64,000 nt of DNA from an archaeon GW2011_AR15 (GTDB lineage Archaea; Nanobdellota; Nanobdellia; Woesearchaeales; GW2011-AR15): positions 576,001-640,000 of the forward strand of contig CP010425.1 of the NCBI GenBank assembly GCA_000830295.1, written 5' to 3'. The translations under genes were made by a program, and so were the position numbers. A model generated the notes under the pieces. That model was given only the letters and a program-made list of their open reading frames with translations, did no database searches and was not told where the DNA came from. This document shows positions 4,451-59,652 of the stretch, piece after piece. Each line of letters opens with the position of its first letter. Positions within the stretch are counted from its first letter, which is position 1.

Positions 4451-4551
4451 TAATGGAGGCGTAGTATAACCAAGGCCAACTGATAATGTCGGTTGACACC
4501 ATAGTGGGTTTCGCTACGCTCAAGCCCACATAACGGGGACGTAGTACAACC
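4451..4551 (+). mobile_element. Two-hairpin element copy A with duplication of the tRNA-Trp 5' end
   Basis: TAATGGAGGCGTAGTATAACC (4451-4471) vs TAACGGGGACGTAGTACAACC (4531-4551), 17/21 identical; between them CAACTGA..TCGGTTG and GTGGGTTT-CGCTACGCTC-AAGCCCAC hairpins. Confidence 0.75.
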
Positions 4552-4663
4552 TGGCTAGTATAAGCGGCTCCAGTCATGGAGCGATGAGGCGTAAGCCGAT
4601 GACATGCAGATAAAAGTTCCGGGAAGTAACCGCTGGATCGGGGTTCAAATCCCTGCGTCCCCA
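4535..4663 (+). tRNA. tRNA-Trp(CCA) with 55-nt intron (4574-4628)
   Basis: GGGGACG/CGTCCCC acceptor, AGCGG/CCGCT anticodon stem, CT-CCA-G loop, TTCAAAT T-loop. Confidence 0.92.
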
Positions 4664-4758
4664 CCTTATTTTTTTCGTTCTGTTAACTCGTTAACAGAAC
4701 TGGATTTGTTTCCCTCAAGGCTTTTTTAAAGGCTTGGTGAGCATCCCTGCGTCCCCAC
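4649..4758 (-). mobile_element. Two-hairpin element copy B with duplication of the tRNA-Trp 3' end
   Basis: ATCCCTGCGTCCCCAC exact at 4649-4664 and 4743-4758; between them a T-tract, a perfect 11-bp hairpin (4677-4700), TGTTT and a CAAGGCTTT/AAAGGCTTG hairpin. Confidence 0.75.
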
Positions 4759-4805
4759 TTTTACTTATAGGAAATATTTTAACCAAGACCGTATTTTTGT
4801 TTAAC

Positions 4806-5657
4806 ATGGATATTTCCTTAGGCATAATAACTTACAAAGACAGGAAAATAGATGGACTTCTGGAAAGCATCAAAAAACAAAAGCTGCAAAAAGTAAGGGT
4901 AAAAGAGATTATCGTCGTTTGCATTGAAGCAGACAAGAGACATATAAGAAATCTGCTGAGAAAATATGGATTTGAGAAAGCAAAAATTCTAACAGAGAAA
5001 AAAAGAAAAGGAAAATACAACGCAGTCAATTTATTTTTTAAAGAAGCAAAATCAGGCATCCTTGTGATGAGCAGCGGGGACATTCTGCTGCATGAAGCTG
5101 CAGTTGAAAGTATATGCAGGCCGTTTTCTGACAGTCGGACAGGCATAGTGGCAGCAAGACCTCTGCCTATGAATATTAATTCCGAAAACATGCTGGGATT
5201 TACTGTTGAACTGCTGTGGGAGCTCCATCACATCATTTCATATCAGCAGCCGAAATTCGGCGAATTTATTGCTTTTAGGAATCTCGGATTTATCTTACCG
5301 AAAACAGCAGTAGACGAAGAGACGATAGCGAGCATAATATATTCAAGAGGATATAAAGGAAGATATGCAGAAAACGCAGTAATTTATAATAAAGGGCCCG
5401 GCACAGTCCATGATTACATAAAGCAGAGGAGGAGAGTGTATTGCGGGCATATGCAGCTTAGAAAAATTTCCGGATATAAAGTTCCGACCTTAGATAGCGT
5501 TAGAATTATCAGCCATCTTCTGAAAAGAAAAGAACTCCTGAAGCATCCACTTAAAGCACTCTATGCCATCTCACTGGAATCTGCCGCTAGAGCCCTTGGT
5601 TTTTTTGACTATATTGCCGGAAAAGATTACGCGGTATGGAAGATAATAAAAAAGTAA
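4806..5657 (+). CDS. Glycosyltransferase family 2
   Basis: ISLGIITY, RKGKYNAVN, SSGDI (DxD-like), VDEE, QRRR; ATG 4806 preferred over TTG 4734. Confidence 0.85.
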   Translation: MDISLGIITYKDRKIDGLLESIKKQKLQKVRVKEIIVVCIEADKRHIRNLLRKYGFEKAKILTEKKRKGKYNAVNLFFKEAKSGILVMSSGDILLHEAAVESICRPFSDSRTGIVAARPLPMNINSENMLGFTVELLWELHHIISYQQPKFGEFIAFRNLGFILPKTAVDEETIASIIYSRGYKGRYAENAVIYNKGPGTVHDYIKQRRRVYCGHMQLRKISGYKVPTLDSVRIISHLLKRKELLKHPLKALYAISLESAARALGFFDYIAGKDYAVWKIIKK

Positions 5658-6527
5658 TCAAAGGGATTTTTCTGTTATTTCCACTGCTTTTTCTAAGGTA
5701 ATGAATTCAGGCTTAATTCTTTTCTTTAATTTGCTTATGCTGACCGTCCTTGTCTCTGTAAAGAAATTTACCCTCTGAGAGTTTATCAGAAAATCTCTCT
5801 TGAATATTTTTGACAATAAATCTGCTAATTTTGCGAAGGGCATCATAAAGACACTACATAATGGGATAAAGATGATTTTTTTATTTATCATTTTTGCAAA
5901 TTCTCTCACTGAAACCTGCCTTTCTCCTGCAACAACAAACAATTCATTATTTATATCTTTCTCAATAATTTTGATCAGTATATCTGTAAAATCCTCAACA
6001 AATAATGGCTGTATAAGATTCCTGCCTGAATCAATAAGAGGGAAAAACCCTCTTCTTGCCATCCTGAATATTTTCATGAACCTCCTATCTCCGGGCCCGA
6101 ATATTATTCCAGGCCGTAAGATAACATAGTCAAGGCCGGAATCCTTCACAAGCTTTTCTGCCTCCAGCTTTGTTTTCTCATAAGGTGTTCTGGGGTTTGG
6201 CGGAGTATTCTCCTTAGCATTTATGCATGGTTCGTAGATTCCTGCAGTGCTTATAAAAATAAATCTTGCCCCGGCTTTTTTAGCTTCATTCAGCATGTTT
6301 TTCGTCCCGGTAACATTAACTCTATAATGGGAATCGTCAAATGAGTTATCCATCAGCTTCCCGGCCAGGTGGATAACTATATCAGACTTTTTGGCGCAAT
6401 CTATGATTGTTTCTGGCTTTGTTATGTCCCCGCTGAGAAGGTTTAATTCATACCCTCTATTTTTTAGTTTTTTCACAAGATTTTTACCTATAAAACCCCT
6501 ATGTCCAGTAACAAGAACCCTTGCCAT
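5658..6527 (-). CDS. NAD-dependent epimerase/dehydratase (extended SDR)
   Basis: VTGHRGFIG, IHLAG, YEKTK. Confidence 0.9.
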   Translation of the reverse strand: MARVLVTGHRGFIGKNLVKKLKNRGYELNLLSGDITKPETIIDCAKKSDIVIHLAGKLMDNSFDDSHYRVNVTGTKNMLNEAKKAGARFIFISTAGIYEPCINAKENTPPNPRTPYEKTKLEAEKLVKDSGLDYVILRPGIIFGPGDRRFMKIFRMARRGFFPLIDSGRNLIQPLFVEDFTDILIKIIEKDINNELFVVAGERQVSVREFAKMINKKIIFIPLCSVFMMPFAKLADLLSKIFKRDFLINSQRVNFFTETRTVSISKLKKRIKPEFITLEKAVEITEKSL

Positions 6528-6565
6528 AGCAAATTATTTAAAAAAACGAATGCATATAAAAAACC

Positions 6566-7645
6566 ATGTTTCCCACATACGTCAGGCTAGGGTATTCAAT
6601 ACCAGCATACAGGCTGTCAAGAGTTCTGAATCATCCTCTTGCAAAACCGATTAACATCACCCTTTCTGTCACGAACAGGTGTTATTCAAGATGCCGAAGC
6701 TGCAATGTCTGGAAAGTCCATAAAGAGAATCCCGAGATAGCAACCCAGGAGATGACAACAGAAGAATGGGGCAAATGCCTGAAAAGCCTTGGCAGAGGGC
6801 CAATATGGTTCACAATCACAGGAGGAGAAACAACATTAAGGGATGACCTGCCTCAGATAGTTTCGCTTATAGCTAAGCATAACAGGCCAAGATATATAAA
6901 CTTGGCAACAAGTGGCATTTATCCAAAAAAAACAATTAGCATTGTCAGGGAAACTCTGAAGATAACCTCAAAAAACAACATTCTGTTTACTCTTAACCTA
7001 TCTATTGATGAGATTGATGAGAGATATGAAGAAGTAAGGGGCGTCCCAAAAGGCTTTGAGAAGGTAAAAGAGACATTTTTCGGACTGAAAGAACTTAAAA
7101 AAGAATTTCCGGAGTTTGTTCTTGGTGTTAATATGGTAATCTCAAGGCTCAATTATAAGCGCTTTAAAGAAATTCATAACTATATCATGGATAAATTGGG
7201 GCCGGATTCTTTTGTTTCAGAGATTGTAGAAAGGAGAAAGGCGATATACTTTGATGATGACCTTTCAATACCTGATGAGGATGCACAGGAAATACTTAAT
7301 TATCTCATAGAATATGAGAACCAGAAATCAGAGCAGGCAAAAGTAATTGGCTTTTTCAGAAGGCGATATTACAGGATACTAAAAAAAATAATACATGATA
7401 AGAGGGAAGCTATGCCCTCGTATTCCGGGATAGCCTCCTGCACCATCTCTTATAACGGCGATGTATGGGATGCCCCAAAAGAGACAAACATCTTTGGCAG
7501 CCTCAGAGAAAACGGGTATGATTTCAGCAGGGTATGGAAATCAGACAGGGCAAGAAATGAAAGGAAAAAACTGAGAGCAAAAAGAGAGTATTCAACAACA
7601 GCCAACCCCCTGTATACAGATATGCTTTGCAATCTTAAGATATAA
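6566..7645 (+). CDS. Radical SAM protein
   Basis: CYSRCRSC, TGGE; degenerate SPASM-like C-terminus. Confidence 0.9.
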   Translation: MFPTYVRLGYSIPAYRLSRVLNHPLAKPINITLSVTNRCYSRCRSCNVWKVHKENPEIATQEMTTEEWGKCLKSLGRGPIWFTITGGETTLRDDLPQIVSLIAKHNRPRYINLATSGIYPKKTISIVRETLKITSKNNILFTLNLSIDEIDERYEEVRGVPKGFEKVKETFFGLKELKKEFPEFVLGVNMVISRLNYKRFKEIHNYIMDKLGPDSFVSEIVERRKAIYFDDDLSIPDEDAQEILNYLIEYENQKSEQAKVIGFFRRRYYRILKKIIHDKREAMPSYSGIASCTISYNGDVWDAPKETNIFGSLRENGYDFSRVWKSDRARNERKKLRAKREYSTTANPLYTDMLCNLKI

Positions 7646-8860
7646 CTACATAGCCCTGTTCTTTATCATCTTCTCATACATGAAATCAACAAGCTCAGGA
7701 TTCTTGGAAAGATGGACGCACAAGTGGCAGATAAACGGATAGTCTTCCTTTTCTATCTTTTTTTCTTTTATAAGGAAATCATATAATTCTTTTCCCTTGA
7801 ATCTCTTTAGCAGCATGAGGTGCCTGTGCTCTTTCATAAACACCTCCTCCAGCGAAAGATTTTCACTTAATTTTGCAATAGTGTATTCTTCTTTCATAAC
7901 AGCGGGCCCTGCACAGAAAGAGATTCTCTCGTCAGGCAGCAGTTTAAGCATAGTGCAATATAGATTATCAGGATATTCAAACTTGCCTTTGTTCTCTCTT
8001 ATAATCTCATCTTTATATTTTTTCCCGGCTCCAATTGGAATAATCTGCCTCCATCTTGATTGGTGGTGTTCCATTAATTTGGAGAACTTTTTTCTGCTTT
8101 TTTCATAATCACATCTGGAAACTTCTTCAATCTGAAAATCAAACACATTCCAGCCAAAGACATCTTTTGATATGTCCTTGAGTTTGAGGAAACTTTCTTC
8201 ATTTATTCCATATTTTCGATGTCCGATGCCTATGCTTATAGTTATAAATCCATTATATCCGGCGTCCTTTAGCCTCTGCATATATTCCCAGGCTTTTTTT
8301 GGATCGTTGCACCAAAAACCGTTTGTAGTCATTCCAAAAACTCGCATACCTTTTTTTTGGGCCAATTTGATGGCTTTACAAAGATGATCCATATAGAGAA
8401 AAACTTCACCACCAAAAAAAGAAATTTGTCTTATGTTTACTTCTTTTAGTTTATCTATAAACAACTCTATTCTATCGAGTTCCAGTAATTTATGATCAAA
8501 ATTTGTCTGATAGCAATGATCACACCTGTAATTGCAGGCATAGGTCAATATAACAGTGGCATAATTAGCGTAGAATATATATGATGGGTAGAGAAAGAGG
8601 TCATTCTTTACAAGTTCTTTTGAAAATTCAAACTCCAGCTTTTTCAGATCATTGTATGAATTAAGTTTTGTTTTTTTTCCTTTTGTTACTTTATCGAATA
8701 GCTTATATCCAAGTTTTAGTTTACGTATGTTTAATTTTATATAATCTCTGAATTTTTGATAATCACTTTTAAAAGGAGAGCAATAGAAATACTTCAGTCT
8801 GGCCGCAAGGCCAGCCTTATACTTCAGCAACCTGTATTTGTTTTTTATAGTACTGTACAT
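7646..8860 (-). CDS. Radical SAM protein
   Basis: CNYRCDHC, FGGE, TTNGFW, C-terminal CHLC. Confidence 0.88.
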   Translation of the reverse strand: MYSTIKNKYRLLKYKAGLAARLKYFYCSPFKSDYQKFRDYIKLNIRKLKLGYKLFDKVTKGKKTKLNSYNDLKKLEFEFSKELVKNDLFLYPSYIFYANYATVILTYACNYRCDHCYQTNFDHKLLELDRIELFIDKLKEVNIRQISFFGGEVFLYMDHLCKAIKLAQKKGMRVFGMTTNGFWCNDPKKAWEYMQRLKDAGYNGFITISIGIGHRKYGINEESFLKLKDISKDVFGWNVFDFQIEEVSRCDYEKSRKKFSKLMEHHQSRWRQIIPIGAGKKYKDEIIRENKGKFEYPDNLYCTMLKLLPDERISFCAGPAVMKEEYTIAKLSENLSLEEVFMKEHRHLMLLKRFKGKELYDFLIKEKKIEKEDYPFICHLCVHLSKNPELVDFMYEKMIKNRAM

Positions 8861-9378
8861 TCTATTCCTTTAGAGGATAATCTCTTTTTCATTGAATCTA
8901 AATGGTCATTACCAAGTATTACATATACCTTTTTAATGCTTTCTTTTAAACAGTCTTTACTGATTTCTTCAATCATTGCAGTTTCTCTTTTTTTTATGAA
9001 ATATTCTTCAAAAACAGGATTGTTAGTATTATTAGACCCTGTAGTTGCCATCCTAAAGAGATCTTTTATATTGGAATCCCTATAGAATTGCTTTGCTAAT
9101 TTTATACCTTTTATATCTATATATTTGAATTTAAAACCCTCTTTTTTTAGATATTCTGTCAGGTGATAGAATTCATAAAATCTGGTCTTTTTTAATCCAA
9201 AAATCCCACTAAAAAATCTGGCAGTTATGGTCTTTCTCCGGTGTTTTTTGTATCTTAACATATCATATTCAAGCAAAATAAGAGCATTTTTTGCATTAGA
9301 GTTATTAAGAATAGTTTTTACTTTTTGAAAAGAGGTTGGGTTATTATGCTTAACCCCCATGATAATAATCTTACTCAT
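8845..9378 (-). CDS. Hypothetical protein, possibly a short TraB/GumN(Tiki)-like fold
   Basis: IIMGVKH..LLEY..RETAM..VILGNDHL pattern. Confidence 0.5.
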   Translation of the reverse strand: MSKIIIMGVKHNNPTSFQKVKTILNNSNAKNALILLEYDMLRYKKHRRKTITARFFSGIFGLKKTRFYEFYHLTEYLKKEGFKFKYIDIKGIKLAKQFYRDSNIKDLFRMATTGSNNTNNPVFEEYFIKKRETAMIEEISKDCLKESIKKVYVILGNDHLDSMKKRLSSKGIECTVL

Positions 9379-9606
9379 ATTAAGGCGACATAGTTTTTGT
9401 CTAGATTAATTTAACTGTTTTATGAAGGCTTTAAATTATATCTTCTCAGAATTCTGTTTCCAAAAACCTTTTCTTTAATGAAAGTAAAGACTCTTTCTCC
9501 GAAGCTTTTATACATGGCTATAATAAGAGTCTTCCCTTTTATATATTTTTCGGGCGGGAGCAGCTACCAAAAGGTTTTTTAAGCATTAGTACTTAATTTT
9601 AAGATT

Positions 9607-11115
9607 ATGAATGAGAAAAAGAAAATACTGTTTATCAAATATTTTACTCCGGCAAACTTTGACCAGCGCACTATTGGAGCCATACTTAATCACAGATACG
9701 ATGTCAGCTACCTGACTATCCTAAGCGATGATGGTTTTAAGTCGCTTAAAGGAGAAAAAACCCACGACAGAGAGAATTATCGGAAACTTGGCAAATTCTG
9801 CAGCAACTACGATTTCATACTTATAGGCGCGCTATCTTTTGATGAGAAAAGGATATTTGAGTTTATAACCTATCTAAATAGGAATTATCCGGATCTTAGA
9901 CTCCTCCTTGGGGGGCCGTTGGCAATGGCAGAACCTGAAAAATGCCTGAAATATGTTGATTACCTTTGTATCTGGGACGCATATAATATAATGCAGCTTT
10001 TTGACTATATTGAGACAGGGAAGTTTCCTGAAGGAGGGTTGGATAATTTTGTGATAAAGGGAAAAAATGAGTTTCCAGGATTATCATTGCCAAAGACTTA
10101 TGATGAATACCCGGTCCCAGATTTTGCTTCTGAAGAAAATTATTCTTATCTTAATGGAAAATTGATGAAACTAGGTAAATATACTCCAAAAATGGTTTAT
10201 TTTGAAACAGAAAAAGGATGCATCTTCAACTGTAGTTTCTGTTCTATTTCTCATTATAACAAAATAAAGCGTCAAAATAAAATGCCTCTTGTAGTAAAGA
10301 GCTCTATGATAGTTGTCTTAGAGAAACTTAGAAAAATAAAATCCAATTTAAGAAAAGATGCATGTATTGACATCTTGGACGATAACTTTTTTGTCTATAG
10401 TGAAGAAGAAATACAATATTTTGTTGATCATTATGACAAAGAGATAGGTCTTCCTGTTATAATTCAAACCGACCCCAGATCAGAAAATTTCATTGAGAAG
10501 TTTAGGATTATTTCTAAAATAAAAAATATGAAAGTATTTGCGTGCGGAATTCAAACTGGATCAGAGCAATTTAATCTGAGAGTATACAACAGATCTCAGA
10601 AAAATAAGCTCATAATAGATAACCATAGGTCTATGAAAAAAATAATGAGACGACAGGGTGTGAAATTTACAGTCTTATATTATATAATATACAATAACCC
10701 ATTAGAGAAAAGAGAAGATGTTCTTGACACAATTAACCTCATGCTTAATCTTAGAGGGAAGGAGTTTGAATTCCAGCTAAATGCCTATTCGTTAATACCT
10801 TCAACAATACTTGGAGAGAGATTAAAAGACTATTATAATGATATATATACTTTCAGAGACCCGCAGTTTAATGTTTTCAGAAAAAATGCATTCTATAATC
10901 TATTCCTTTTTATCATAAACAAAATTAATTTTATGGGTGCAGATTTCCTCCTGCCAAGCAAATTTAAGGAGAATATAGTTACTGAACTATTGAACAATAA
11001 ATTCCTTGCAAAGCCGTATTACAAAGCATTAATAAACGCTACATATACTCACGAAAAAAGAAGGCTACAAAAAGAAAGAGAGGACATTCTAAAGAGAGCC
11101 ACGATAATTGCATAG
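9607..11115 (+). CDS. B12-binding-domain radical SAM protein
   Basis: LLGGPLA..PE N-domain, TEKGCIFNCSFC, DDNF, GIQTGSE. Confidence 0.85.
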   Translation: MNEKKKILFIKYFTPANFDQRTIGAILNHRYDVSYLTILSDDGFKSLKGEKTHDRENYRKLGKFCSNYDFILIGALSFDEKRIFEFITYLNRNYPDLRLLLGGPLAMAEPEKCLKYVDYLCIWDAYNIMQLFDYIETGKFPEGGLDNFVIKGKNEFPGLSLPKTYDEYPVPDFASEENYSYLNGKLMKLGKYTPKMVYFETEKGCIFNCSFCSISHYNKIKRQNKMPLVVKSSMIVVLEKLRKIKSNLRKDACIDILDDNFFVYSEEEIQYFVDHYDKEIGLPVIIQTDPRSENFIEKFRIISKIKNMKVFACGIQTGSEQFNLRVYNRSQKNKLIIDNHRSMKKIMRRQGVKFTVLYYIIYNNPLEKREDVLDTINLMLNLRGKEFEFQLNAYSLIPSTILGERLKDYYNDIYTFRDPQFNVFRKNAFYNLFLFIINKINFMGADFLLPSKFKENIVTELLNNKFLAKPYYKALINATYTHEKRRLQKEREDILKRATIIA

Positions 11116-11119
11116 ATAT

Positions 11120-12124
11120 ATGAAAAAATTTAAGGCAATATTGAGAGGCAGCAGGAAAGTCCTTCTAATAACTTCCTCCGGATATATGAATCTGGGTGGA
11201 GAAGCAGTTGTCCATAAGATAATAACTGAGGTCCAGTCAGCAAATCCAAAATCCCGGCTGAGAGCTACTTCAAGCAACCCTGGACACTCAGAGAAACTGC
11301 ATAAATTTGAAAATATCAAATTCATAAATTCTCTCTCAGTCAAACTTGTTTCCAATCTATTGTTAGCAGACACAATTGTTATTGCAGGCGATGAGATTAC
11401 TTCTGCCAGGCTTAATCAGCTTTACCCAGGAGTTCTGTCATATCTTCAGGGAAAATTCAGGATATTTGCTGCAGCTCTTGGAGTATTTTTAGGGAAAAAA
11501 GTCATTTTCTACAAGATCGGTCTGTATTCTTTTCAAAACAATTTCCCAAAAGGTGCCCTTAATTACGCACTAGAGAATTCAGTTCTTATTGTTGCAAGGG
11601 ACAATGAAACAAAAAAACAGCTTAGGTTGTTCGGGTGCAGAAAAGAAATCCAGGCTGGGAGAGACCCCGGTTATGATGTGGAATACCGGAAACAGAAGGG
11701 AACTAGAGGGATGGGCCTGATATTGAGCAACCCCCTCAATGACAGAAAAGAGCAGAAATTAACACAATTCCTGAAAAGCCTGTCTGACAAAAAGAAAAAG
11801 CGCAAACTCTGTTTCTTTGTTTTCTGCAGACATCCGGAAAAAGAAGCGGAAAATGATTTAACTTTTGTCAATAAAATAGTTTCTAAGCTCGGCCTGAAAA
11901 AGAAAGATTATGAAATATTTGTCTCAGATGAGCCCGCCAGAGTCAAGTCAAAAATGTCATCTATGTCTTTTATTATAACCTCAAGATATCACGGCGCAGT
12001 TTTCGCAGATTCAACAAAAGTCCCTTTCATTGCACTGCCCGTCAGCAACAAATTAAGGGCATTCGGAAAAAGGACAGTTGAATTCGAGGAGCTGGAAAAT
12101 TTTAACTTAAACCATATCAAGTAA
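11120..12124 (+). CDS. Polysaccharide pyruvyl transferase family protein
   Basis: GYMNLGGEA, ARD, DP, TSRYHGAV motifs. Confidence 0.85.
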   Translation: MKKFKAILRGSRKVLLITSSGYMNLGGEAVVHKIITEVQSANPKSRLRATSSNPGHSEKLHKFENIKFINSLSVKLVSNLLLADTIVIAGDEITSARLNQLYPGVLSYLQGKFRIFAAALGVFLGKKVIFYKIGLYSFQNNFPKGALNYALENSVLIVARDNETKKQLRLFGCRKEIQAGRDPGYDVEYRKQKGTRGMGLILSNPLNDRKEQKLTQFLKSLSDKKKKRKLCFFVFCRHPEKEAENDLTFVNKIVSKLGLKKKDYEIFVSDEPARVKSKMSSMSFIITSRYHGAVFADSTKVPFIALPVSNKLRAFGKRTVEFEELENFNLNHIK

Positions 12125-13309: not shown

Positions 13310-13347
13310 AAAAATATAGAGGGAAACGTAATATTAAAGCTTATTGC

Positions 13348-18544: not shown

Positions 18545-18583
18545 ATTTTTAAACAGGCTTGTTGTCTAGCAGAATTATAGGCT

Positions 18584-18667
18584 GCCCCTGTAGCTCAGCG
18601 GGAGAGCGGCGGTTTCGTATGTTACAGAAAAAACCGCAGGTCGGGAGTTCAATCCTCCTCAGGGGCT
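18584..18667 (+). tRNA. tRNA-Thr(CGT) with 12-nt intron (18620-18631)
   Basis: GCCCCTG/CAGGGGC acceptor, GCTC/GAGC D-stem, GCGGT/ACCGC anticodon stem, TT-CGT-A loop. Confidence 0.9.
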
Positions 18668-18761
18668 TGTAGTAAAATGAATATGGGCTTGAGCGGAGCG
18701 AAACCTATTTGTTTCCGCCAACGCTTTCCAAAAGGGTTGGTGTAATCCTCCTCAGGGGCTT
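18651..18761 (-). mobile_element. Two-hairpin element copy C with duplication of the tRNA-Thr 3' end
   Basis: AATCCTCCTCAGGGGCTT exact at 18651-18668 and 18744-18761; TGGGCTTGAGCGGAGCGAAACCTA, TGTTTC, CCAACGCTTTCCAAAAGGGTTGG. Confidence 0.8.
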
Positions 18762-18852
18762 TCCACCAGGAACTGGGACTGAGCAGAGCGAATGTCGCAC
18801 ATGTTTCGTTCAACCCTTTCCTAAAGGGTTGGTGGGATTCAACTCAGGGGCC
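18762..18852 (-). mobile_element. Two-hairpin element copy D with a degenerate tRNA-Thr 3' remnant
   Basis: TGGGACTGAGCAGAGCGAATGTCGCAC, TGTTTC, CAACCCTTTCCTAAAGGGTTGG, then GGATTCAACTCAGGGGC. Confidence 0.75.
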
Positions 18853-18877
18853 TGTATTAACATGTTGGATTAGGGAA

Positions 18878-19213
18878 ATGAAAATAATAGCAGTAGTAAA
18901 CGACCTCTTCTTTGCAGCAAAGATAAGGGAGACAGCAAATCAGCTAGGTATAGAGCTGCTCATAATAAGGAATAAAGAAGACTTGTTTAGGCAGCTGGGC
19001 GGCTCTGAAACATACAAGCTCATAGTTGATCTGAATTTCAGGAGCTTTGACATCCTAGGAGCACTCAGGGAGGTAAAGAAAAAACACACAGTCTATACAA
19101 TAGGCTATCTTTCGCATGTCCAGGTTGAGCTGAGGAAAAAAGCAGAGAAATGCTGCGACCTGGTGCTGCCGAGGAGCGCATTCTCAGAAAGGCTTCCAGA
19201 GTTATTGTCTTAA
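18878..19213 (+). CDS. Stand-alone CheY-like receiver-fold protein
   Basis: VVNDLFFAAKI, LIVDLN, GYLSHV..VLPRSAF. Confidence 0.65.
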   Translation: MKIIAVVNDLFFAAKIRETANQLGIELLIIRNKEDLFRQLGGSETYKLIVDLNFRSFDILGALREVKKKHTVYTIGYLSHVQVELRKKAEKCCDLVLPRSAFSERLPELLS

Positions 19214-19806: not shown

Positions 19807-19815
19807 GCAGAGATA

Positions 19816-39675: not shown

Positions 39676-39778
39676 CATGCGCCTTGTAGCTCACATGAAT
39701 CAACTGTCCTGTCGGTTGACACCGGTGTGCGGCGTGCGCTCATTAGTGAGCTTAGCCCCACTAATAAAGAAAAAACAT

Positions 39779-39792
<14 letters not shown>
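39676..39792 (+). mobile_element. Two-hairpin element copy E with duplication of the tRNA-Arg 5' end
   Basis: CATGCGCCT(T)GTAGCTCA at 39676-39693 and 39776-39792; shares TGTCGGTTGACACC with copy A; GTGCGGC..GCCCCAC; A-rich tail. Confidence 0.8.
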
Positions 39793-39853
<61 letters not shown>

Positions 39854-39867
39854 CTTTTCTTTTGCTC

Positions 39868-41015: not shown

Positions 41016-41166
41016 ACGGTAGTGGTCTAACGGCATGACACGACCCTCCCAACCTTTTAAGAAAAGGTTGGCGAAAACAGGTGGGTTTCTTCACCTTGTT
41101 CGTCAAGCCCACATCAAAAAAAGGGAGAGTGAGGTCGATATCCGGGTTCAATTCCCGGCTACCGTA
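41016..41166 (+). tRNA. tRNA-Gly(CCC) with 80-nt intron/insertion (41052-41131)
   Basis: ACGGTAG/CTACCGT acceptor, CGACC/GGTCG anticodon stem, CT-CCC-A loop, CCGGG-TTCAATT-CCCGG. Confidence 0.85.
41049..41122 (+). mobile_element. Two-hairpin element copy F inside the tRNA-Gly anticodon loop
   Basis: CCAACCTTTTAAGAAAAGGTTGG-CGAAAACA-GGTGGGTTTC..TCAAGCCCACAT-CAAAAAAA, colinear with the reverse complement of copy C. Confidence 0.8.
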
Positions 41167-42304: not shown

Positions 42305-42359
42305 GCGGAGGTGCGTTGAAACCGGAAACGGTTCACTGACCTCCTCAAAACGCGGAGGT
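42305..42359 (+). repeat. Hairpin insert with 8-bp duplication of the tRNA-Leu 5' end
   Basis: GCGGAGGT at 42305 and 42352; GGAGGT..ACCG-GAAA-CGGT..ACCTCC stem; AAAA before the second copy. Confidence 0.6.
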
Positions 42360-42478
42360 AGCGAAGTGGCCAAACGTGGCAGACTCAAGAATTTGAGTGA
42401 TGAGCCGAGAGGCGATGACATACTATTGGGCCATCTGCTCCCTTAGTGGGTTCGCAGGTTCGAATCCTGTCCTCCGCA
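42352..42478 (+). tRNA. tRNA-Leu(CAA) with 43-nt intron (42390-42432)
   Basis: GCGGAGG/CCTCCGC, GCAGA/TCTGC, CT-CAA-G, long variable arm, BHB (CTCA:TGGG, CCA bulge). Confidence 0.93.
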
Positions 42479-50852: not shown

Positions 50853-50872
50853 CAAGGCAGACGGGAGTTATT

Positions 50873-51421: not shown

Positions 51422-51525
51422 ATAATCTCCTACTTATTTATTCAATGTATATATATCTTTTGTTTTAAATCTTGCTCCATAAATATCGCAAAAATTTTAT
51501 AAATAACGTATACAATTAACTGGCG

Positions 51526-52854: not shown

Positions 52855-52861
52855 ATATGCT

Positions 52862-53410
52862 ATGCAGAAATTTCTCAGATTTCCTACATTGAGCTATCCA
52901 AAGCTTACTCTTCTTGTGCTCAGCTACATTCTCACTTACCTCCTTTTCATCAATGGTAGTTTCTCAGCACTCAGCGGCATAATCCACCTCCTTGGGTATA
53001 TAGGGGTGTTTATAGCAGGCATATTCTATTCATATGGGCTCACATCAGGACTTATAACTCCTGTAATCTTCCTTATGGCAAAAAGCCTGAATATCTTTGT
53101 AGCAGGATTCATAGGGGGGCTTGGCTCTTTGGTTGGAGATCTTCTTATATTTGAATTCATAAAAGTTGGATTTAGCGACGAGATACAGAAGCTCGGCCAT
53201 GAAAAACTGCTGATGAAGATAAAGATGCCCGTGATAGTCAGAAGCTATCTTGCCATTATAGTGGGAGCAATAATAATAGCTTCGCCGCTTCCTGACGAGC
53301 TCGGTGTCAGCATAATGGCAATGTCACATATATCAATAAGAAATTTCATTTTCATGGACTATCTGCTCAACACCTCAGGCATACTCTTCATACTATTTCT
53401 TGGCCTTTGA
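52862..53410 (+). CDS. Hypothetical multi-pass membrane protein
   Basis: GDLLIF..IASPLPDELG, about 5 TM helices. Confidence 0.75.
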   Translation: MQKFLRFPTLSYPKLTLLVLSYILTYLLFINGSFSALSGIIHLLGYIGVFIAGIFYSYGLTSGLITPVIFLMAKSLNIFVAGFIGGLGSLVGDLLIFEFIKVGFSDEIQKLGHEKLLMKIKMPVIVRSYLAIIVGAIIIASPLPDELGVSIMAMSHISIRNFIFMDYLLNTSGILFILFLGL

Positions 53411-54016
53411 GGGCTTGCTGTATTTAAGAAATTCTCTGGTTGCGGCAGCCCTATTGATTTCTTCTGTGTATTTCTGGAACTGTTCTATGTTTTCATCTGT
53501 AATAACATCTTTCCTGAGCAGCAGTTCATACTGAAACCCAAACATTGTCTCATGGGGGAAAACGCTCCTTACAAGGCTCATTTTTTTACTTTCAGTATTC
53601 ATGACAGATAGAGTGATTGTGTATGCGTCATCGAAATCCAAACGGTTAGTGGGTCTTGGGCGATTAGTTTTATTCTTTGAGGCACGTACATCCAGCTGGT
53701 AGGTGCATATAACCAATTCTTCTTTTATAGGAAAACGCTCAAACTTTGCATCTTTTCTTATAATCCTCTCAAGAAGGGAATTCCTGTCCCTGGTTTCTTT
53801 AAATCCCTCATTGTCTACAGTTGAGCCGTCCGGAAATACAATCTTTCCTGCAATAGAATTAATATTATCCTCATCATAATTAGGGCTCATATACTCAGTG
53901 AATTTCTCAGACTCCAGGTACCTTCTTGCATTAAGCATAGCCAAAGCAGCCCTGCCGAAAGAATCAAATTGCACATCCCTAAGGTCAGGATAATGGCCCG
54001 TATATTTTTTGTCCAT
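53393..54016 (-). CDS. Hypothetical protein
   Basis: 207-aa ORF filling the gap. Confidence 0.6.
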   Translation of the reverse strand: MDKKYTGHYPDLRDVQFDSFGRAALAMLNARRYLESEKFTEYMSPNYDEDNINSIAGKIVFPDGSTVDNEGFKETRDRNSLLERIIRKDAKFERFPIKEELVICTYQLDVRASKNKTNRPRPTNRLDFDDAYTITLSVMNTESKKMSLVRSVFPHETMFGFQYELLLRKDVITDENIEQFQKYTEEINRAAATREFLKYSKPSKAKK

Positions 54017-54172
54017 TTTAATCGTCTATTTATTGAGGTGAACTGCAAGTTATTTATAAAATTAGTTTTAAAATAGAAATGAAGTAACTCCTTTATAGTA
54101 GTAAAAAATAGAAAGATTTATATACCCTGCAGCCATTATCCTCTTAAAATCAATTGAAAAAGAGGTAGAAAA

Positions 54173-54772
54173 ATGAGAAAACAGCCAGAACCTGCAAGCT
54201 TTGCAATAGTGCATGCGCCAGAACTTAACCCTTCCCTTGAAGAGCTTGTCCTCCACAGGGCAGGAGAATATATTGTTGTGGATGGAGACCAGGTAGCAGC
54301 CAAAGCATTCCGTGATCCTCTTAATCTTTTCAAAGAATCACCTTTTTCAGGATATCCCCACTTTTCAGTTTCTTCATATAATCAAAGGGATGCTGTGCAG
54401 ATTACTGTTGAGGAAGCGCTGAATCTCGGAGTGGAAACTCTTGGAAATGTTCCCCTTGAAAAAATTTACGAGACAACACTGGAGATACTTACAGGAATAG
54501 GGAAAAGGGTCATAGCCCCGGACCAGAGAAGAACGCTTTTGGAAATGATGGACAGGAGAGCATATCTGGTAAGCCTTCCTGAATATGCAGTGCCAAAGGC
54601 AGAAGAAACAAAACCTGCGCCAAAACAAAGCAGGCCATTTGAACTTTGTGATCCCAAAGAAATTGAGGCAATGCTCAGGAACAGCAAAGGCATGGGGGAG
54701 CATTACAATATGATAATGCCCAATTATAGCATGCCACCACCAAGGATTGCAATCAGCCCAACCAATAGATAA
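54173..54772 (+). CDS. Hypothetical protein
   Basis: GAGGT RBS; 199 aa. Confidence 0.65.
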   Translation: MRKQPEPASFAIVHAPELNPSLEELVLHRAGEYIVVDGDQVAAKAFRDPLNLFKESPFSGYPHFSVSSYNQRDAVQITVEEALNLGVETLGNVPLEKIYETTLEILTGIGKRVIAPDQRRTLLEMMDRRAYLVSLPEYAVPKAEETKPAPKQSRPFELCDPKEIEAMLRNSKGMGEHYNMIMPNYSMPPPRIAISPTNR

Positions 54773-54799
54773 TTTTTCTTATTTTATGAGACGAGAAAA

Positions 54800-56188
54800 A
54801 TGCCAATAACAAAAAAATCACAATTAGTGCCGGGAGGGATGTACAGAGCAATCTCTCCTGCAGAATTCTTCATTGAGGTATATGATAGTATATCTAACAG
54901 ACTGTCTGCAATTGTCAGCAACCTGTTTGACCAGTACAAAATTTTTATGAAAGGCAGTGAAAACCATAACGTAAGGGAGGAGATTATAGACCTTCTTTTC
55001 GTGGGGGATTATGAGGAAGCAAAAGAGCTGCTGAAAACAGAAATACAGGATAAGAGACTGGCAGAATACATGGGGCTGCCAAAGCTCAAAGAAATCTTTG
55101 ATAATAAATTGATGGAGACTGCCGTGCCAATGCTTATATCAGAAGGAGATGTGTCAACTCTTTATGATGAGTTCCGTAGAGATGAAGCAAGAAAACTTAT
55201 GGAAAAACTTACACCAAAGATTGCGCAGGAATATGGAGTTAGCCATGAGATTGCAATGAAAGCGCTGGAGATATCGCTGAATGTTGACGACGGAATTGGG
55301 GATTCTCATGGAAGAGCCACAGAATTCCTGTATCAGAACACAGAAAAAATGCCTGAAAATCCCTCTCTTTTGCCTCAGTTTCCGTATTCAGAGTACGATG
55401 CTGTAATCAAGTCCCGTATTCTTGACGAGCTTGAAAATTCTCTTGGAATAGATGAAGACGGCAATATAGGTGACGTGCCCCAATCTCAAAGAAAATTCAG
55501 CATAACCAGCGGCTATAACAGTTACGATAATCACAGTCCTCTTAAACGTGGAAAAATGTATGCTGCATATAGGCCGGAGCAGATTAATGATATTGGGCTG
55601 GAGACCAGAATAAATAATGGCAATGGCCACAACAGCGAGCCGAGGAAAGGGAGGATTGAAAGAGTCGAGGGAGATGTGCTTCTGATTCCATTAGTTTCAA
55701 GAGCAGAAAAATATTTCAGTCTTATATCTTCACCAGAAGAAAAAATAATAGCCGGCATGCCGTATGAGACAGCTAAGCAGTTTTATATGCTTGTTTGCGA
55801 AGGAAAGATCGAAGAAGCATATAATTTATTTGTGAGAGAAAGCAGCATACAAATTAAACCCGAACACGTACAGAGGGAATATGAGGATTACAAGAACTTT
55901 TTTAATGGAGAAAATCCACATGTTTCTGAGGCATTGCAGCTGCACGAAGAAGATGTGCCGCTATATTCAGCAATTGACCTCGGTATTGTTGAGATGTCGG
56001 TTCTCAGAATAGCCAGAGCAGAAGCCTCTGTCAACGGCTCTATAAAGCCAGTGAATATGGTTTCCAACCAAAAGGTGAAGATACATCTTGGGAAAATTGA
56101 AGCCGTCTACATTGTTCACCAAGGCCCTATAACAGAAGAATACAGCGCGAAGATAGCAGAATTCCTTGCACAACCTTCTTTAGTCTAG
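54800..56188 (+). CDS. Hypothetical protein
   Basis: 462-aa acidic ORF; no recognised motif. Confidence 0.7.
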   Translation: MPITKKSQLVPGGMYRAISPAEFFIEVYDSISNRLSAIVSNLFDQYKIFMKGSENHNVREEIIDLLFVGDYEEAKELLKTEIQDKRLAEYMGLPKLKEIFDNKLMETAVPMLISEGDVSTLYDEFRRDEARKLMEKLTPKIAQEYGVSHEIAMKALEISLNVDDGIGDSHGRATEFLYQNTEKMPENPSLLPQFPYSEYDAVIKSRILDELENSLGIDEDGNIGDVPQSQRKFSITSGYNSYDNHSPLKRGKMYAAYRPEQINDIGLETRINNGNGHNSEPRKGRIERVEGDVLLIPLVSRAEKYFSLISSPEEKIIAGMPYETAKQFYMLVCEGKIEEAYNLFVRESSIQIKPEHVQREYEDYKNFFNGENPHVSEALQLHEEDVPLYSAIDLGIVEMSVLRIARAEASVNGSIKPVNMVSNQKVKIHLGKIEAVYIVHQGPITEEYSAKIAEFLAQPSLV

Positions 56189-56248
56189 GGAAAAATTATT
56201 TAAACTCAGCAACTTCTAATTCTATAAAAAGTAGGTGAACCTGTCTTT

Positions 56249-58903
56249 ATGAAGAAATACGCATATATCGCAGTGCTAATACTTGTGTTTATACTTGCAT
56301 CTGTCTCTGTATATGCTGATGACACTGATTCTGACGGCCTTGATGACGGCTGGGAGATAGGGTATTTCGGCAACCTCCTGCAGACCAGCTCAGGCGATTT
56401 TGAGCCTGACGGCCTGACAAACCTTGAGGAATTCACGCTAACTACAAACCCGAAAGTAGCAGACACAGATGGCGATACTTATTCTGACTGGGAGGAAGCA
56501 GTCCAGGGAAGCAACCCCAATGATGCTAACAGCATCCCTGCAGGAAACATACTTAATATAACCCTGATTAAGCCTAAATTTGTAGTTTCGCCTGTAAAGA
56601 CTTTTGAGCTGCAGATATCCACTCAGAATTCCTCCCAGTGCAAGTACAGCGCCTCCCCCAATGTATTATATGATGATATAGACAACACAAACCAGTTCTT
56701 CACTGCAAGCAACGGAGGGAAAACACACACAATATCTGATTTCCGCCTTGATGCGCAGGATAATTTTGTAGTCCCGATTTATGTGAAATGCAGAATAGAC
56801 TCAAACGGGTTCATAAATGACAACTCGCCGTATGAGATTTCTCTAAGCGTTGATACAACCCCGCCGAAAATAAACTCATTGTATGCAAGCCCCAACCCGG
56901 TCATCGAAAACCTTGATGTCGACCTGATTGCAGTAACGGACGACCCGGCAATATGCAAATATTTTGCAAATAACATTACACTTGCAGATATACAAAGCGT
57001 TTCAGCAGGAGCAAAAATATCAGATTTCAACACTACAAGCACAAGGCATCTTTCAAAAGACACCACTCCGAAAATTGAAGACAAGAAAAGCTACCTTTTC
57101 CATGCAATATGCATGAACAGGGCAGAGCAGGCAACAACAGCAGACGTCAATTTTTCAGTCGACCTTTCAATAAGCAACAGGATAACCCAGAAAAGCCCAT
57201 CAGGCTACATAAATGTCAAAAACACCCAGCTGAAGCTTGTCACAAACAAGCTTGCGACATGCAAATACGGCCAGGGATTCATCAATAATTTCCCTCAGTC
57301 AAACACAAACAACCATTACATTGACCTTACAGAGCTGAATGAGACGTCATACAGCTTTCCCGTACTCTGTACCTTCAGCGATGCAGGCACCCTTTCTGAT
57401 ACAGTATCATTTACAGTTGACACAACACCCCCCTCATCACTGGTGATTAATTCACCAACCCAAAGCTGCTCCCAGGACAGGCTGAGCGTTTCAATGTCAG
57501 CATCAGACACAGCAGGCAATATATCTGGTTTTGATGTAAGGCTTGTTGATGCACTTGATGCAGTGCTGTTCCATATAAACACCGTCTCCACTAATGTGAA
57601 TGCCACGAATCTCTCCCTTGCAGTGGGAAGCACATATTCTTGGGAAGTATCTGCCTTTGACAGGGCAGGCAACAACCTGACTGAAAGGAGTTCAGGGACA
57701 ACAATATTCAGCAGCAATGACACAGTATGCCTCCAGAACCAGGGCCCCCGGATCACAGTTCTTTCCACGCTTACTGAAAACGGGATCTCTGTAAGGCTGG
57801 AATGCATCGATAATGACGGGGTATGCGCAAACATATCCTATCTTGTTTCAGATTCAGCATCATGCACAGGAGATTATCAGGAATATGATGTATTTTCAAA
57901 AATAATCGTATCAGAAGAGTCAACGCTATGCTATACTGCTGCAGACAACCAGGGCACTGAAGTTACAGGCTCAAGACTGGTGAAATACGAGGCGTGCACT
58001 TCAGAGTTCTGCTGCCTTGAACAGCAGGGATATGTGTGCGAAGACAGTGACTGCACTCTTGTTGAAGATGTGCAGTGCGTTCCTGAGAACAAGGACACTG
58101 ACCTTGACGGCATGCCTGATTTCTGGGAAGAGCAGTATGGATTCAATATAAACGTGGATGACTCCAGCCTGGACAAGGATGAGGACGGCCTTGCGAATGT
58201 CCAGGAATATACTTTCGGCTCAAATCCAACCCTCTCGGACACAGATGCAGACGGATATACTGACAAGGAGGAATTTGACGCAAATTCAGATGCAAATGAC
58301 AGTGCAGCCTGGCCGACAACAGGAGACCTTGACAATGACAGGATGACAGAAGGCCAGGAAAAATCCTGCGGAACAGACAGGACAAAAGCTGATGCTGACG
58401 AAGACTATGACCAGGACGGCCTTACAAATTATGATGAGTGCGTCATACACAGGACAAATGCCCTAAAGGCAGACACAGACGGGGACGGATTTGATGACAA
58501 GAAGGAAGTCGACGCAGGAACAGCTCCTGCAAACGGGAATGATTACCCCAACTCGCACTTATTCAGCATTATACTCCTGCTTCTTGGGCTTGGGCTTGTG
58601 GGATTTGGGGCAGTATCGCTTTCAAAAAAATCCGCTTCAAGGCCCAGCATGTCGCCAAATGTTGATTTCAGCAGCGCAAGGCAGCAGCTTTCCCAGCAGC
58701 AGCCGTCAGCACAGAAAAAAAGGCAAGGCATGAAAATTTCAGGAGAAGAGCTTGACAGGGAAATAAAAAAGAAAAGGGAACAGCTCAGGCTGAGGAAAAT
58801 GAGCTCTGTGTTTGATGAATTCGCAGAAAGCAGCCCCAGGCACGAGCAGAAAGAAGATGTCTTTGAAGAAATAGACAGGCTAAGGAAGAAAAAAGGTAAT
58901 TAA
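56249..58903 (+). CDS. Membrane-anchored surface protein with Ca-binding DxDxDG (thrombospondin type 3-like) repeats and Ig-like domains
   Basis: Signal peptide; DTDSDGLDD, DTDGDTYSD, DTDLDGMPD, DTDGDGFDD; DTTPP linkers; C-terminal TM. Confidence 0.85.
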   Translation: MKKYAYIAVLILVFILASVSVYADDTDSDGLDDGWEIGYFGNLLQTSSGDFEPDGLTNLEEFTLTTNPKVADTDGDTYSDWEEAVQGSNPNDANSIPAGNILNITLIKPKFVVSPVKTFELQISTQNSSQCKYSASPNVLYDDIDNTNQFFTASNGGKTHTISDFRLDAQDNFVVPIYVKCRIDSNGFINDNSPYEISLSVDTTPPKINSLYASPNPVIENLDVDLIAVTDDPAICKYFANNITLADIQSVSAGAKISDFNTTSTRHLSKDTTPKIEDKKSYLFHAICMNRAEQATTADVNFSVDLSISNRITQKSPSGYINVKNTQLKLVTNKLATCKYGQGFINNFPQSNTNNHYIDLTELNETSYSFPVLCTFSDAGTLSDTVSFTVDTTPPSSLVINSPTQSCSQDRLSVSMSASDTAGNISGFDVRLVDALDAVLFHINTVSTNVNATNLSLAVGSTYSWEVSAFDRAGNNLTERSSGTTIFSSNDTVCLQNQGPRITVLSTLTENGISVRLECIDNDGVCANISYLVSDSASCTGDYQEYDVFSKIIVSEESTLCYTAADNQGTEVTGSRLVKYEACTSEFCCLEQQGYVCEDSDCTLVEDVQCVPENKDTDLDGMPDFWEEQYGFNINVDDSSLDKDEDGLANVQEYTFGSNPTLSDTDADGYTDKEEFDANSDANDSAAWPTTGDLDNDRMTEGQEKSCGTDRTKADADEDYDQDGLTNYDECVIHRTNALKADTDGDGFDDKKEVDAGTAPANGNDYPNSHLFSIILLLLGLGLVGFGAVSLSKKSASRPSMSPNVDFSSARQQLSQQQPSAQKKRQGMKISGEELDREIKKKREQLRLRKMSSVFDEFAESSPRHEQKEDVFEEIDRLRKKKGN

Positions 58904-58904
58904 A

Positions 58905-59408
58905 ATCAAAAAAGCGCAGGTGTCCTCACAGGTTTTTGTATACATAATGGCTGCAATCATAGTGGCTGTTGTGCTTTTTGTCGGCTACAGGTCAGTCTCC
59001 ACAATATTGGCGGCGGCAGGAAAGGCTACAATAGATACTTTCAAATCAGACTTCAGCTATGCTGTTGAAGATGCTTCTGACAGCTACGGGAGCAGGCACA
59101 AATTTGAATTTACCCTGCCAAAAAAATTTGACAGGATATGTTTTGTCGACTCCATGAATAACGGGAGGTTCAGCATAAACCCCGACAGGATAGATAACTT
59201 TTACATAAGGCTGAGCGTCGAGGATGATGCGGAATATAACGTGTTCCTTCTCAAAGAGGAAAAGATAGAAGAAAGGTTCTATGTCCCTAGCCTTGATGTT
59301 CTTGCAGACTATATGTGCCTTGACAACCAGGGGCTTCTTGAAGTGTGGCTTGAAGGTGTGGGAGACAGGGCCTGCATGGTAAGTGCAACAGGGTCATGTT
59401 TAGGATAG
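58905..59408 (+). CDS. Class III signal peptide (pilin-like) protein
   Basis: (I)KKAQ-VSSQVFVYIMAAII; requires an ATC/ATT start upstream of the ORF-track GTG at 58920. Confidence 0.75.
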   Translation: MKKAQVSSQVFVYIMAAIIVAVVLFVGYRSVSTILAAAGKATIDTFKSDFSYAVEDASDSYGSRHKFEFTLPKKFDRICFVDSMNNGRFSINPDRIDNFYIRLSVEDDAEYNVFLLKEEKIEERFYVPSLDVLADYMCLDNQGLLEVWLEGVGDRACMVSATGSCLG

Positions 59409-59420
59409 ATAGTATAGAAG

Positions 59421-59529
59421 ATGAAAAAAGCCCAGATAGAACAAGGTTTTAATAAAACCTTGAGCAAAACAAGTGCGGCATTCGCTTAAAGCTCAGCCCC
59501 ACAAAAAAATGAAAAAAGCCCAGATAGAA
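59421..59529 (+). mobile_element. Two-hairpin element copy H with 21-bp gene-start duplication
   Basis: ATGAAAAAAGCCCAGATAGAA at 59421 and 59509; CAAGGTTTT-AAT-AAAACCTTG, AAAACAA, GTGCGGCATTCGCT..GCTCAGCCCCAC, A tract. Confidence 0.82.
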
Positions 59530-59652
59530 ATGCAGTTCAACTATATCAGCTGGTTACGCCCGGCTGGCATGCAAAAGCAGGTTATATCTCGCCCTGCTCG
59601 ATATAACTTACTACCAAAATGAAAAAAGCCCAGATAGAAATGCAGTTCAACT
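59509..59652 (+). mobile_element. Two-hairpin element copy I with 34-bp gene-start duplication
   Basis: ATGAAAAAAGCCCAGATAGAAATGCAGTTCAACT at 59509 and 59619; CAGCTGG..CCGGCTG and GTTATATC-TCGCCCTGCTC-GATATAAC hairpins. Confidence 0.8.

Follow-up and report, generated by a model that had tools for sequence, protein, structure and literature searches.

A family of small two-hairpin elements inserted at duplicated tRNA and protein-gene ends in the archaeon GW2011_AR15

The stretch of DNA analysed in this study (the window) comprises 64,000 nucleotides (nt) from the archaeon GW2011_AR15 (Nanobdellota, Woesearchaeales), corresponding to positions 576,001 to 640,000 of contig CP010425.1 in assembly GCA_000830295.1. 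The genome, labelled G000 in the comparisons below, is a single contig of 1,157,790 bp with 42.5% G+C and is rated 96.8% complete; its last 100 positions (genome 1157691-1157790) are a run of 100 N. A first-pass annotation of the window had proposed eight copies of a small non-coding element located at gene ends, and all eight were found where it had placed them. The copies are confirmed as a real family of non-coding hairpin elements, described here in a common reading orientation with hairpin 1 (H1) first, followed by a linker, a second hairpin (H2), and an A-rich end where one is present. Positions are those of the window unless they are marked as genome positions.

Four copies are associated with the genes for two transfer RNAs (tRNAs). 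The gene for tRNA-Trp(CCA), which has a long canonical intron (4535-4665, + strand), is occupied at both ends. Copy 1 (4472-4534, +), composed of a variant H1 and a type-A H2, lies in the 5' leader and is preceded by an orphan copy, that is, a detached duplicate of a gene tip, of the first 17 nt of the tRNA (4455-4471, +), matching 4535-4551 with three mismatches. Copy 2 (4665-4742, -), with H1, linker, type-B H2, and A-rich tail, occupies the 3' end and is followed by an orphan copy of the last 16 nt of the tRNA (4743-4758, +; 16/16). The gene for tRNA-Thr(CGT) (18584-18667, +) carries copy 3 at its 3' end (Thr 3'a; 18669-18743, -) with an 18/18 orphan copy (18744-18761), and beyond it copy 4 (Thr 3'b; 18762-18836, -), a tandem insertion of greater age with a decayed orphan copy behind it at about 18837-18854. 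ARAGORN assigns the intron-bearing tRNA-Trp to Arg and tRNA-Thr(CGT) (18584-18667) to Phe.

The other three tRNA genes show variations of this arrangement. Copy 5 (39694-39775, +) lies ahead of tRNA-Arg(CCT) (39779-39854), and its orphan copy (39676-39693, +) holds three leader nt and the first 14 nt of the tRNA with one extra T, giving a repeat of 17-18 nt with one indel. Copy 6 (41049-41124) makes up nearly the whole of the 80-nt canonical intron (41052-41131) of tRNA-Gly(CCC) (41016-41166, +) and has no flanking duplication; it is inserted at position 37/38, and the 3' end of the intron appears by eye to be able to pair with the anticodon loop. The fifth tRNA, Leu(CAA) (42352-42478), had been described as carrying a similar but shorter insert, which corresponds to a 39-nt hairpin (42313-42351, +) at its 5' end with an 8-nt orphan copy (42305-42312). 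Paired C/D-box-like motifs are located in the long introns of tRNA-Trp (4572-4640) and tRNA-Leu(CAA) (42389-42431), and to judge from these motifs the introns may encode methylation guide small RNAs (sRNAs), unrelated to the element.

The last two copies are found ahead of a pilin-like coding sequence (CDS; 59619-60599) with no Pfam hit. An orphan copy of the CDS start (59421-59441, +; 21/21) is followed by copy 7 (59442-59508, +), with H1, linker, type-A H2, and A tail, then by a second orphan copy of the CDS start (59506-59542, +; 37/37) and by copy 8 (59543-59615, +), with a variant H1; the intact CDS start follows from 59616. Since the second orphan copy overlaps the intact side of copy 7, copies 7 and 8 represent nested insertions. 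Taken over the window, seven of the eight copies lie outside the mature tRNA or CDS, just beyond a gene, and are enclosed between direct repeats holding the gene tip, the copy in tRNA-Gly(CCC) being the only one inside a tRNA gene. The previous count of six repeat-flanked copies plus a seventh with a degenerate remnant (Thr 3'b) stands, with the correction that the repeat given as 34 bp matches over 37 of 37 nt.

The core of the element is H1, in which the base pairs C-A-A / T-T-G are invariant, together with an A-rich linker behind it whose end reads AAACA or nearly so. Most copies continue with one of several unrelated second hairpins, and an A-rich end is frequent. The layout first proposed, with H1 opening in CAA and closing in TTG, then a linker and H2, is recognisable in the window copies and the base of H1 is invariant, but H2 is a shared part only in the sense that most copies possess a second hairpin, of which at least three unrelated types occur. 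Similarly, an A-rich end, defined as at least five A in the last 10 nt, is present in 13 of the 31 inserts of the genome-wide set described below and is not a general trait; at least five A in the first 10 nt were counted in 4 of the 31. The absence of terminal inverted repeats was borne out, as 4.7 of 16 terminal positions were complementary compared with 4.0 in shuffled sequences. Folding as single strands yields two hairpins, with z scores of -2.1 to -3.8 in seven of eight strands and -0.8 in the remaining one. Across 20 aligned copies (H1 and linker) taken from this genome and its relatives, 91% of H1 cells were paired compared with 82.6% in shuffles, and 17 cells carried double changes compared with 6.0, values that none of 500 shuffles reached; pairing fell to 57% when the partner was shifted by one column. 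Five of the nine H1 pairs are invariant, so part of this pairing signal is plain conservation. The structure of H1 is under selection. A role of H1 as a promoter box was ruled out, as the loop varies while the base of the stem is invariant. H2 read in the reverse orientation was also considered as a kink-turn; it presents paired G-A dinucleotides, but departs from the canonical form by two additional A on the non-bulged strand. Against Rfam, only tRNAs reach the gathering threshold in the window, and the interval 18560-18900 gives nothing at E <1 besides the tRNA.

A genome scan with model R1, a covariance model of H1 plus linker, located 16 places at E <0.001: 14 duplication-flanked insertions at gene ends, the tRNA-Gly(CCC) intron, and a site in the RNase P RNA gene. 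Direct-repeat pairs of at least 14 nt separated by 45-220 nt were also collected; 76 such pairs were found, compared with 1-6 in five first-order Markov simulations, and the pairs of at least 16 nt numbered 52, compared with 0-2 in the same simulations. Curation by eye retained 31 of the 76, those in which the repeat brackets an insert of 37-139 nt at the end of a tRNA or a long open reading frame (ORF), and tabulating these events gave duplications of 13-56 nt of a tRNA or CDS terminus. Seven further events have degenerate or short repeats (Trp 5', Arg 5', Thr 3'b, Ser(GCT) 3', the copy at genome 1013647, the tRNA at genome 1046625, and Leu 5'). Older copies carry smaller hairpins nested in the A/T-rich loop of H1 (genome 24565-24687, 168682-168808, and 863021-863159), with inserts of up to 139 nt, which suggests that A/T-rich loops themselves serve as insertion sites.

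A duplicated end was observed in 23 of the 40 tRNA genes, at the 3' end in 21 and at the 5' end in five, revealing a strong bias of insertion towards tRNA genes. The total of 40 comprises 39 ARAGORN calls and one gene, missed altogether by ARAGORN (in genome 762961-763170), that was recognised solely from its duplicated 3' end (genome 762961-763067). Ten events involve protein genes. Those at 5' ends affect the genes for a thermosome, Hsp70, the pilin-like protein (twice), and a Nop10-like protein, and those at 3' ends affect a class II aminoacyl-tRNA synthetase, PTH2, a small histone-fold-like ORF, and two unknown proteins; the Nop10-like and histone-fold-like labels are readings of the translations. 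A second family of inserts, 37-47 nt long, was noticed at tRNA 3' ends (genome 765282-765392, 770874-770948, 170574-170646, 1078713-1078779, and 1046572-1046633), with repeats starting some 3 nt deeper, at the T-stem. Two of its copies, located beside two tRNAs with similar 3' ends, are identical over 37 of 37 nt.

The boundaries of the duplications follow the ends of the genes. The 18 duplications at tRNA 3' ends cover the last 10-18 nt of the tRNA, mostly 16-17, i.e., from the T-loop, and in 17 of them the outer edge falls between 1 nt inside and 8 nt past the 3' end, the exception being a nested event at +21. The five at tRNA 5' ends start 0-3 nt before the mature 5' end (two placed by count, at 1 nt upstream, and three by reading the sequence) and reach as far as nt 8-17, within or close to the D-arm. 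Duplications of CDS ends are longer, at 17-56 nt; the 5' ones begin 0-30 nt ahead of the start codon, whereas among the 3' ones two start at the stop codon or up to 4 nt past it and two lie wholly inside the end of the ORF. The outer edge would thus be close to the expected start or end of the transcript, and the inner edge in tRNAs lies at the nearest A/T-rich loop. Twenty of the 31 duplications are perfect. In the imperfect ones, the changes fall in the orphan copy, the gene-borne copy agreeing with the conserved tRNA.

Duplications that begin in the T-loop resemble many integrase attachment (att) sites, and the events could accordingly be scars of integrase-borne elements that target tRNA T-loops. 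One clear tyrosine recombinase gene and one weak hit are present in the genome. However, near-identical inserts are flanked by the tips of different genes, CDS starts and stops and tRNA 5' ends are used as well, and the inserts measure just 37-139 nt, with H1 intact inside them and not split at their ends. In addition, a distant second copy of a tRNA end was sought throughout the genome and none was found, which indicates that it holds no large integrated elements bounded by these repeats. This origin is regarded as very improbable. A link between the element and the tyrosine recombinase, located 1.2 kb from one copy, was considered and found no support, the gene for eIF2-alpha lying between the two.

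Comparison of orthologous sites revealed empty, filled, and independently filled positions in relatives, where G001-G005 belong to the same genus and G006-G018 to the same family. The site at the 3' end of tRNA-Trp, filled in G000, has no insert in six of seven relatives (G002, G003, G007, G012, G013, and G018), and in the seventh, G009, it contains a different, unrelated insert with a 24-nt duplication; two extra D-arm introns were also noted in the tRNA-Trp of G009. Among the same seven relatives, the 5' insert of tRNA-Trp is common to G003 only, where its repeat is perfect. The start of the pilin-like gene shows no insert in G002 and G005; G000 has two inserts there (repeats of 21 and 37 nt), and the site is independently filled in G004 (18 nt, with another H2 type) and G009 (about 48 nt). 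This gene start is a recurrent hot spot of insertion; in the two relatives with the empty site, the upstream gene's stop codon and the start codon of this one overlap. The tRNA-Gly(CCC) intron holds the module in G000, G005, and G007 and a variant in G022, while in G002, G008, and G025 it is short (about 13-19 nt) and lacks the module. Gain and loss at the same sites, together with repeated independent hits on the same gene tip, show that the family is or was mobile and that insertions occurred after these lineages split.

These comparisons also bear on the idea that the modules are selected cis-acting signals, with an outward-facing T-run and hairpins serving strongly expressed genes as a terminator, leader, or processing signal and spread being secondary. 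At 3' ends the T-rich strand of the tail directly follows the tRNA, the targets include the thermosome, Hsp70, and pilin-like genes as well as tRNAs, and the Trp 5' insert is kept in both G000 and G003, with the repeat perfect in the latter. Nevertheless, orthologous genes of close relatives do without the module, orphan copies decay, tandem and nested copies occur, and the module also occupies introns and RNase P RNA, sites at which a terminator would do damage. A primarily regulatory origin is therefore judged quite improbable.

The module is not restricted to this genome. R1 matches at E <=0.01 were obtained in 56 of 151 genomes sampled from the phylum, including all five of the family to which the window belongs, and four genomes of another family of the same class have 16-30 R1 hits each. 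In that other family, most loci read are short tRNA introns composed of H1 and linker, situated at the D-loop, at position 37/38, and in the T-arm, and one 35-nt insert consisting of H1 only lies at a CDS start with a 16-nt repeat. Full modules occur in T-loop introns of G004 and G007, one of them with an 8-13-nt T-loop repeat. The tRNA-Trp genes of G012 and G007 have T-loop introns where the 3' duplications begin, with no module in these two. In the RNase P RNA gene of G000 (RNaseP_arch, 98.7 bits; genome 561703-562045), a 51-nt insertion in the P3 loop consists of an antisense H1/linker module and a hairpin. A scan for the exact pattern, with one genome per species, returned 21 records, 15 bacterial, which are taken as chance matches, and six archaeal, with titles naming Candidatus Woesearchaeota (three), Nanoarchaeota (one), and uncultured Methanosarcinales (two, both contigs of one metagenome-assembled genome). 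The repeat-flanked layout at a gene end was recognised in four of the six, with no flanking repeat seen in the other two. No match to the strict H1 pattern was detected in the viral contigs searched.

No reverse transcriptase (RT) or transposase had been seen in the window, and profile searches extended this result to the whole genome for the RT and transposase families tested. The genome gave no hits for Cas1 (PF01867), the Y1/RAYT transposase (PF01797), TnpB-type proteins (PF07282), GIY-YIG, DDE_Tnp_1, or rve. Mobilisation by an HUH/RAYT or GIY-YIG enzyme, formerly offered as an alternative, is consequently not upheld, neither gene family being found in the genome. A related possibility is that the element is a DNA transposon with hairpin ends, moved by an unrecognised nuclease or transposase of variable stagger that is encoded elsewhere in the genome, on a plasmid, by a virus, or by a host. 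The invariant base and covarying stem of H1 are what would be expected of an end recognised by a protein, the family is spread over many genera, and most proteins of these genomes probably lack a known function. In opposition to this, there are no terminal inverted repeats, the duplications vary from 13 to 56 nt and are not fixed as in known transposases, none of the families searched (Y1, TnpB, DDE, rve, Cas1, and GIY-YIG) gave a hit, no longer element with the same ends was seen, and the strict pattern is absent from the viral contigs. Such a transposon is considered clearly unlikely, though less so than a regulatory origin.

Orientation and junctions provide further indications of how the copies arose. 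The fixed orientation noted in the window holds for all 27 copies with a recognisable H1 (22 of the 31 curated inserts and five further copies): H1 adjoins the orphan copy and the other end adjoins the intact gene. The remaining nine curated inserts belong to other small families without H1, for which polarity was not called. In the relatives G004 and G007, the same polarity was observed at eight of eight loci with a repeat of at least 13 nt. Near-identical copies differ in their 5' start by up to about 10 nt, with overlaps of 2-3 nt with the target, and the Val 3' copy is without the first 5 nt or so that are common to the Trp 3' and Ile 3' copies. One copy is a mosaic, its H1 being 97% like one copy and its H2 95% like another, with the switch at the linker.

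The main rival explanation for such junctions is DNA template switching, of the fork-stalling or microhomology-mediated break-induced type, in which a nascent 3' end at a gene border would anneal by a few bases to another copy, copy its hairpins, and return upstream, duplicating the segment in between. The process needs no RT or transposase, in agreement with a genome where none was recognised, and it could explain the junction overlaps of 2-3 nt, the variable 5' starts, the mosaics that switch in the conserved linker, the small hairpins nested in H1 loops, and the tails not being universal. On the other hand, template switching usually copies arbitrary nearby sequence and not one structured family repeatedly across many genera; the 27/27 polarity and the unit-length copies with the same ends better fit a defined template, and no copy was seen to carry flanking sequence from a donor locus. 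We consider it unlikely, although it is the strongest of the rivals. RNA-level ligation of tRNA fragments to the element was rejected, given that the 5' events would need sense fragments and the 3' events antisense ones.

The reading that we prefer, at a probability of roughly 45%, is that of a non-autonomous, polar, target-primed copy-in module that makes use of staggered breaks where transcription units begin or end; the staggered break, the tail-first copying, and the nature of the template are its inferred parts. A copy of the element would enter a staggered break whose outer nick lies at or just beyond the end of a transcription unit (the ends of a tRNA, or for a CDS its stop codon or a point within its short 5' leader) and whose inner nick lies 13-56 nt inside the gene, in tRNAs in the A/T-rich T-loop or D-loop. 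The H2/tail end would join the outer nick and H1 the inner nick, with copying starting at the tail end and running toward H1. Filling of the stagger would then duplicate the gene tip, keeping one complete gene and leaving the orphan tip on the far side; as the duplication always runs from the outer nick into the gene, the intact gene would be regenerated automatically, while insertions with the outer nick inside the gene would be lost. The template could be RNA, the module presumably being transcribed within pre-tRNA leaders and introns, or another DNA copy. The enzyme would be a housekeeping activity or one supplied in trans, because none is encoded by the element and none is recognisable in the genome. 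A module landing in a tRNA loop or in an existing intron persists as intron sequence.

By analogy, the element appears to work most like a short interspersed nuclear element (SINE). It shares with SINEs and other retroposons lacking long terminal repeats (non-LTR), including elements aimed at tRNA genes such as Dictyostelium TRE, a short, non-coding, structured body with no inverted ends and a fixed polarity, as well as variable duplications, variable 5' starts with microhomology, mosaics, a preference for tRNA genes, and, in part of the copies, an A-rich 3' end. It differs from them in its archaeal host, in the lack of an RT or of a partner long interspersed nuclear element (LINE) in the genome or genus, in tails confined to 13 of 31 inserts, in duplications that reach 56 nt, in insertion exactly at the gene tip and not tens of bases away, and in its role in introns. 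The SINE-like retrotransposition first suggested is thus retained with regard to the variable duplications, variable 5' starts, and mosaics, and loses ground with regard to the RT; the tails, present in 13 of 31 inserts, are equivocal. A more specific and more doubtful version, which we rate as possible but rather unlikely, is that these are the first SINE-like copy-in elements of an archaeon: a small structured RNA from a pre-tRNA leader or intron, possibly in the form of excised intron circles, would be copied tail-first into nicks bordering heavily transcribed genes, by a polymerase that is no canonical RT or is borrowed from a host or virus, and would seed introns in the D-, anticodon, and T-loops.

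Several observations weigh against the copy-in reading. RVT_1 (PF00078), the RT profile, had no hit in the genome, nor was an RT found in any of the six genomes of the genus; among 31 relatives, 4 have one. Five other module-bearing genomes were checked, four of them among the richest, and two have an RT. Of two RTs that were scored, the RT of G015 passed the group II intron RT cut-off, and that of G012 was nearest to the same model but below its cut-off. A-rich tails are limited to 13 of the 31 inserts, and the type-C subfamily is tail-less and ends at the foot of H2. Several duplications start after an A/T run and not within it, so annealing of the tail to the target cannot explain all the joins. 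Where the module lies in introns or RNase P RNA, duplication is slight or absent (0-13 nt). Survivorship may also contribute, part of the gene-end pattern resulting from selection and not from targeting. Curation was done by eye, and the other 45 of the 76 repeat pairs, of which the five checked lie within ORFs, fall outside the curated set. Finally, among the Logan contig pieces listed for a 20-kb stretch with seven events, none was seen to bridge an event.

The last point is also the one in favour of an assembly artefact. The database runs listed for the organism comprise 20 DNA runs from groundwater and soil metagenomes, with no RNA run listed, and several of the Logan pieces on the 20-kb stretch end at or beside tRNA genes; these contigs break at tRNA genes and so do not show spanning of the junctions. 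However, the same architecture is present in independently assembled genomes and in records of many genera, the repeats are shorter than a read, and the orphan copies show graded decay, which leaves an artefact a negligible chance. At one Logan joint, 74 nt upstream of tRNA-Thr(TGT) are replaced by 24 other letters; with a side of just 24 letters, this joint possibly derives from another organism and was not counted.

The copy-in module was also compared with known small mobile sequences, and the view that it is not a described family was sustained by the lack of an Rfam match and of any description in the full-text literature searched, a scope that excludes subscription journals and supplements; the intron-family tables in the supplements of cited papers could hold related sequences. 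MITEs (miniature inverted-repeat transposable elements), repetitive extragenic palindromes (REP) moved by RAYT, and the palindromic elements of IS200/IS605 are likewise small, repeated, hairpin-forming, and non-coding. In contrast to them, the present element is not accompanied by terminal inverted repeats, a fixed short duplication, or a RAYT/Y1, TnpB, or DDE gene, and REP and IS200-type elements insert without duplication. Rickettsia palindromic elements, also small structured repeats, invade genes (those for RNAs among them) in the reduced genomes of symbionts and have no known mobilising enzyme; they differ in lying in frame inside coding regions and in having no long gene-tip duplications. 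Integrative elements and casposons at tRNA 3' ends also duplicate the 3' part of the tRNA, but they are kilobases long, encode an integrase or Cas1, and have a duplication length set by the site. An assignment as MITE, REP/RAYT, IS200-type element, casposon, or att scar was rejected in each case after testing a defining feature, which was absent here.

Other archaeal precedents are known. The MITE-like C/D sRNA elements of Pyrobaculum calidifontis are bounded by conserved inverted sequences and located at a distance from genes, and are in this respect unlike the present inserts. The transposing tRNA introns of Thermoproteales are related short introns found in different tRNAs and positions (Fujishima et al. 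2010, via PMC4033280). On that account they resemble the module in that one intron family occupies many tRNAs and is removed, for the module presumably, by the protein splicing endonuclease, and differ from it in that the module is also extragenic and is associated with long target duplications, CDS borders, and RNase P RNA. In the accessible portion of a 208-genome preprint on the phylum, tRNA-Trp calls are missing in 30 of 123 Woesearchaeales and such inserts are unmentioned. A 2026 census of Asgard archaea tested tRNA-tRNA copying, mobile elements, and reverse transcription, and concluded that the arrival route of introns is still open.

The elements are best described as small non-autonomous insertion elements, with a real chance that they represent a categorically new kind. 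They pose a puzzle, as hallmarks resembling those of retroposons are displayed in genomes of about 1 Mb without a recognisable RT or transposase. For annotation, the inserts create false tRNA fragments and lengthen leaders, the orphan tips can be mistaken for tRNA fragments or split tRNAs, and owing to element-bearing introns the usual tRNA-calling programs may overlook or mislabel genes in DPANN archaea. For the biology of the group, a single sequence family is found in two states, as intron cores and as fresh insertions with a DNA footprint of duplications and of orthologous sites left empty or filled independently, so that the insertion step becomes directly amenable to study. The presence of the module in tRNA introns may show how such introns spread and, if the reading as a SINE-like copy-in of RNA is true, it would supply the long-sought route by which archaeal tRNA introns arrive.

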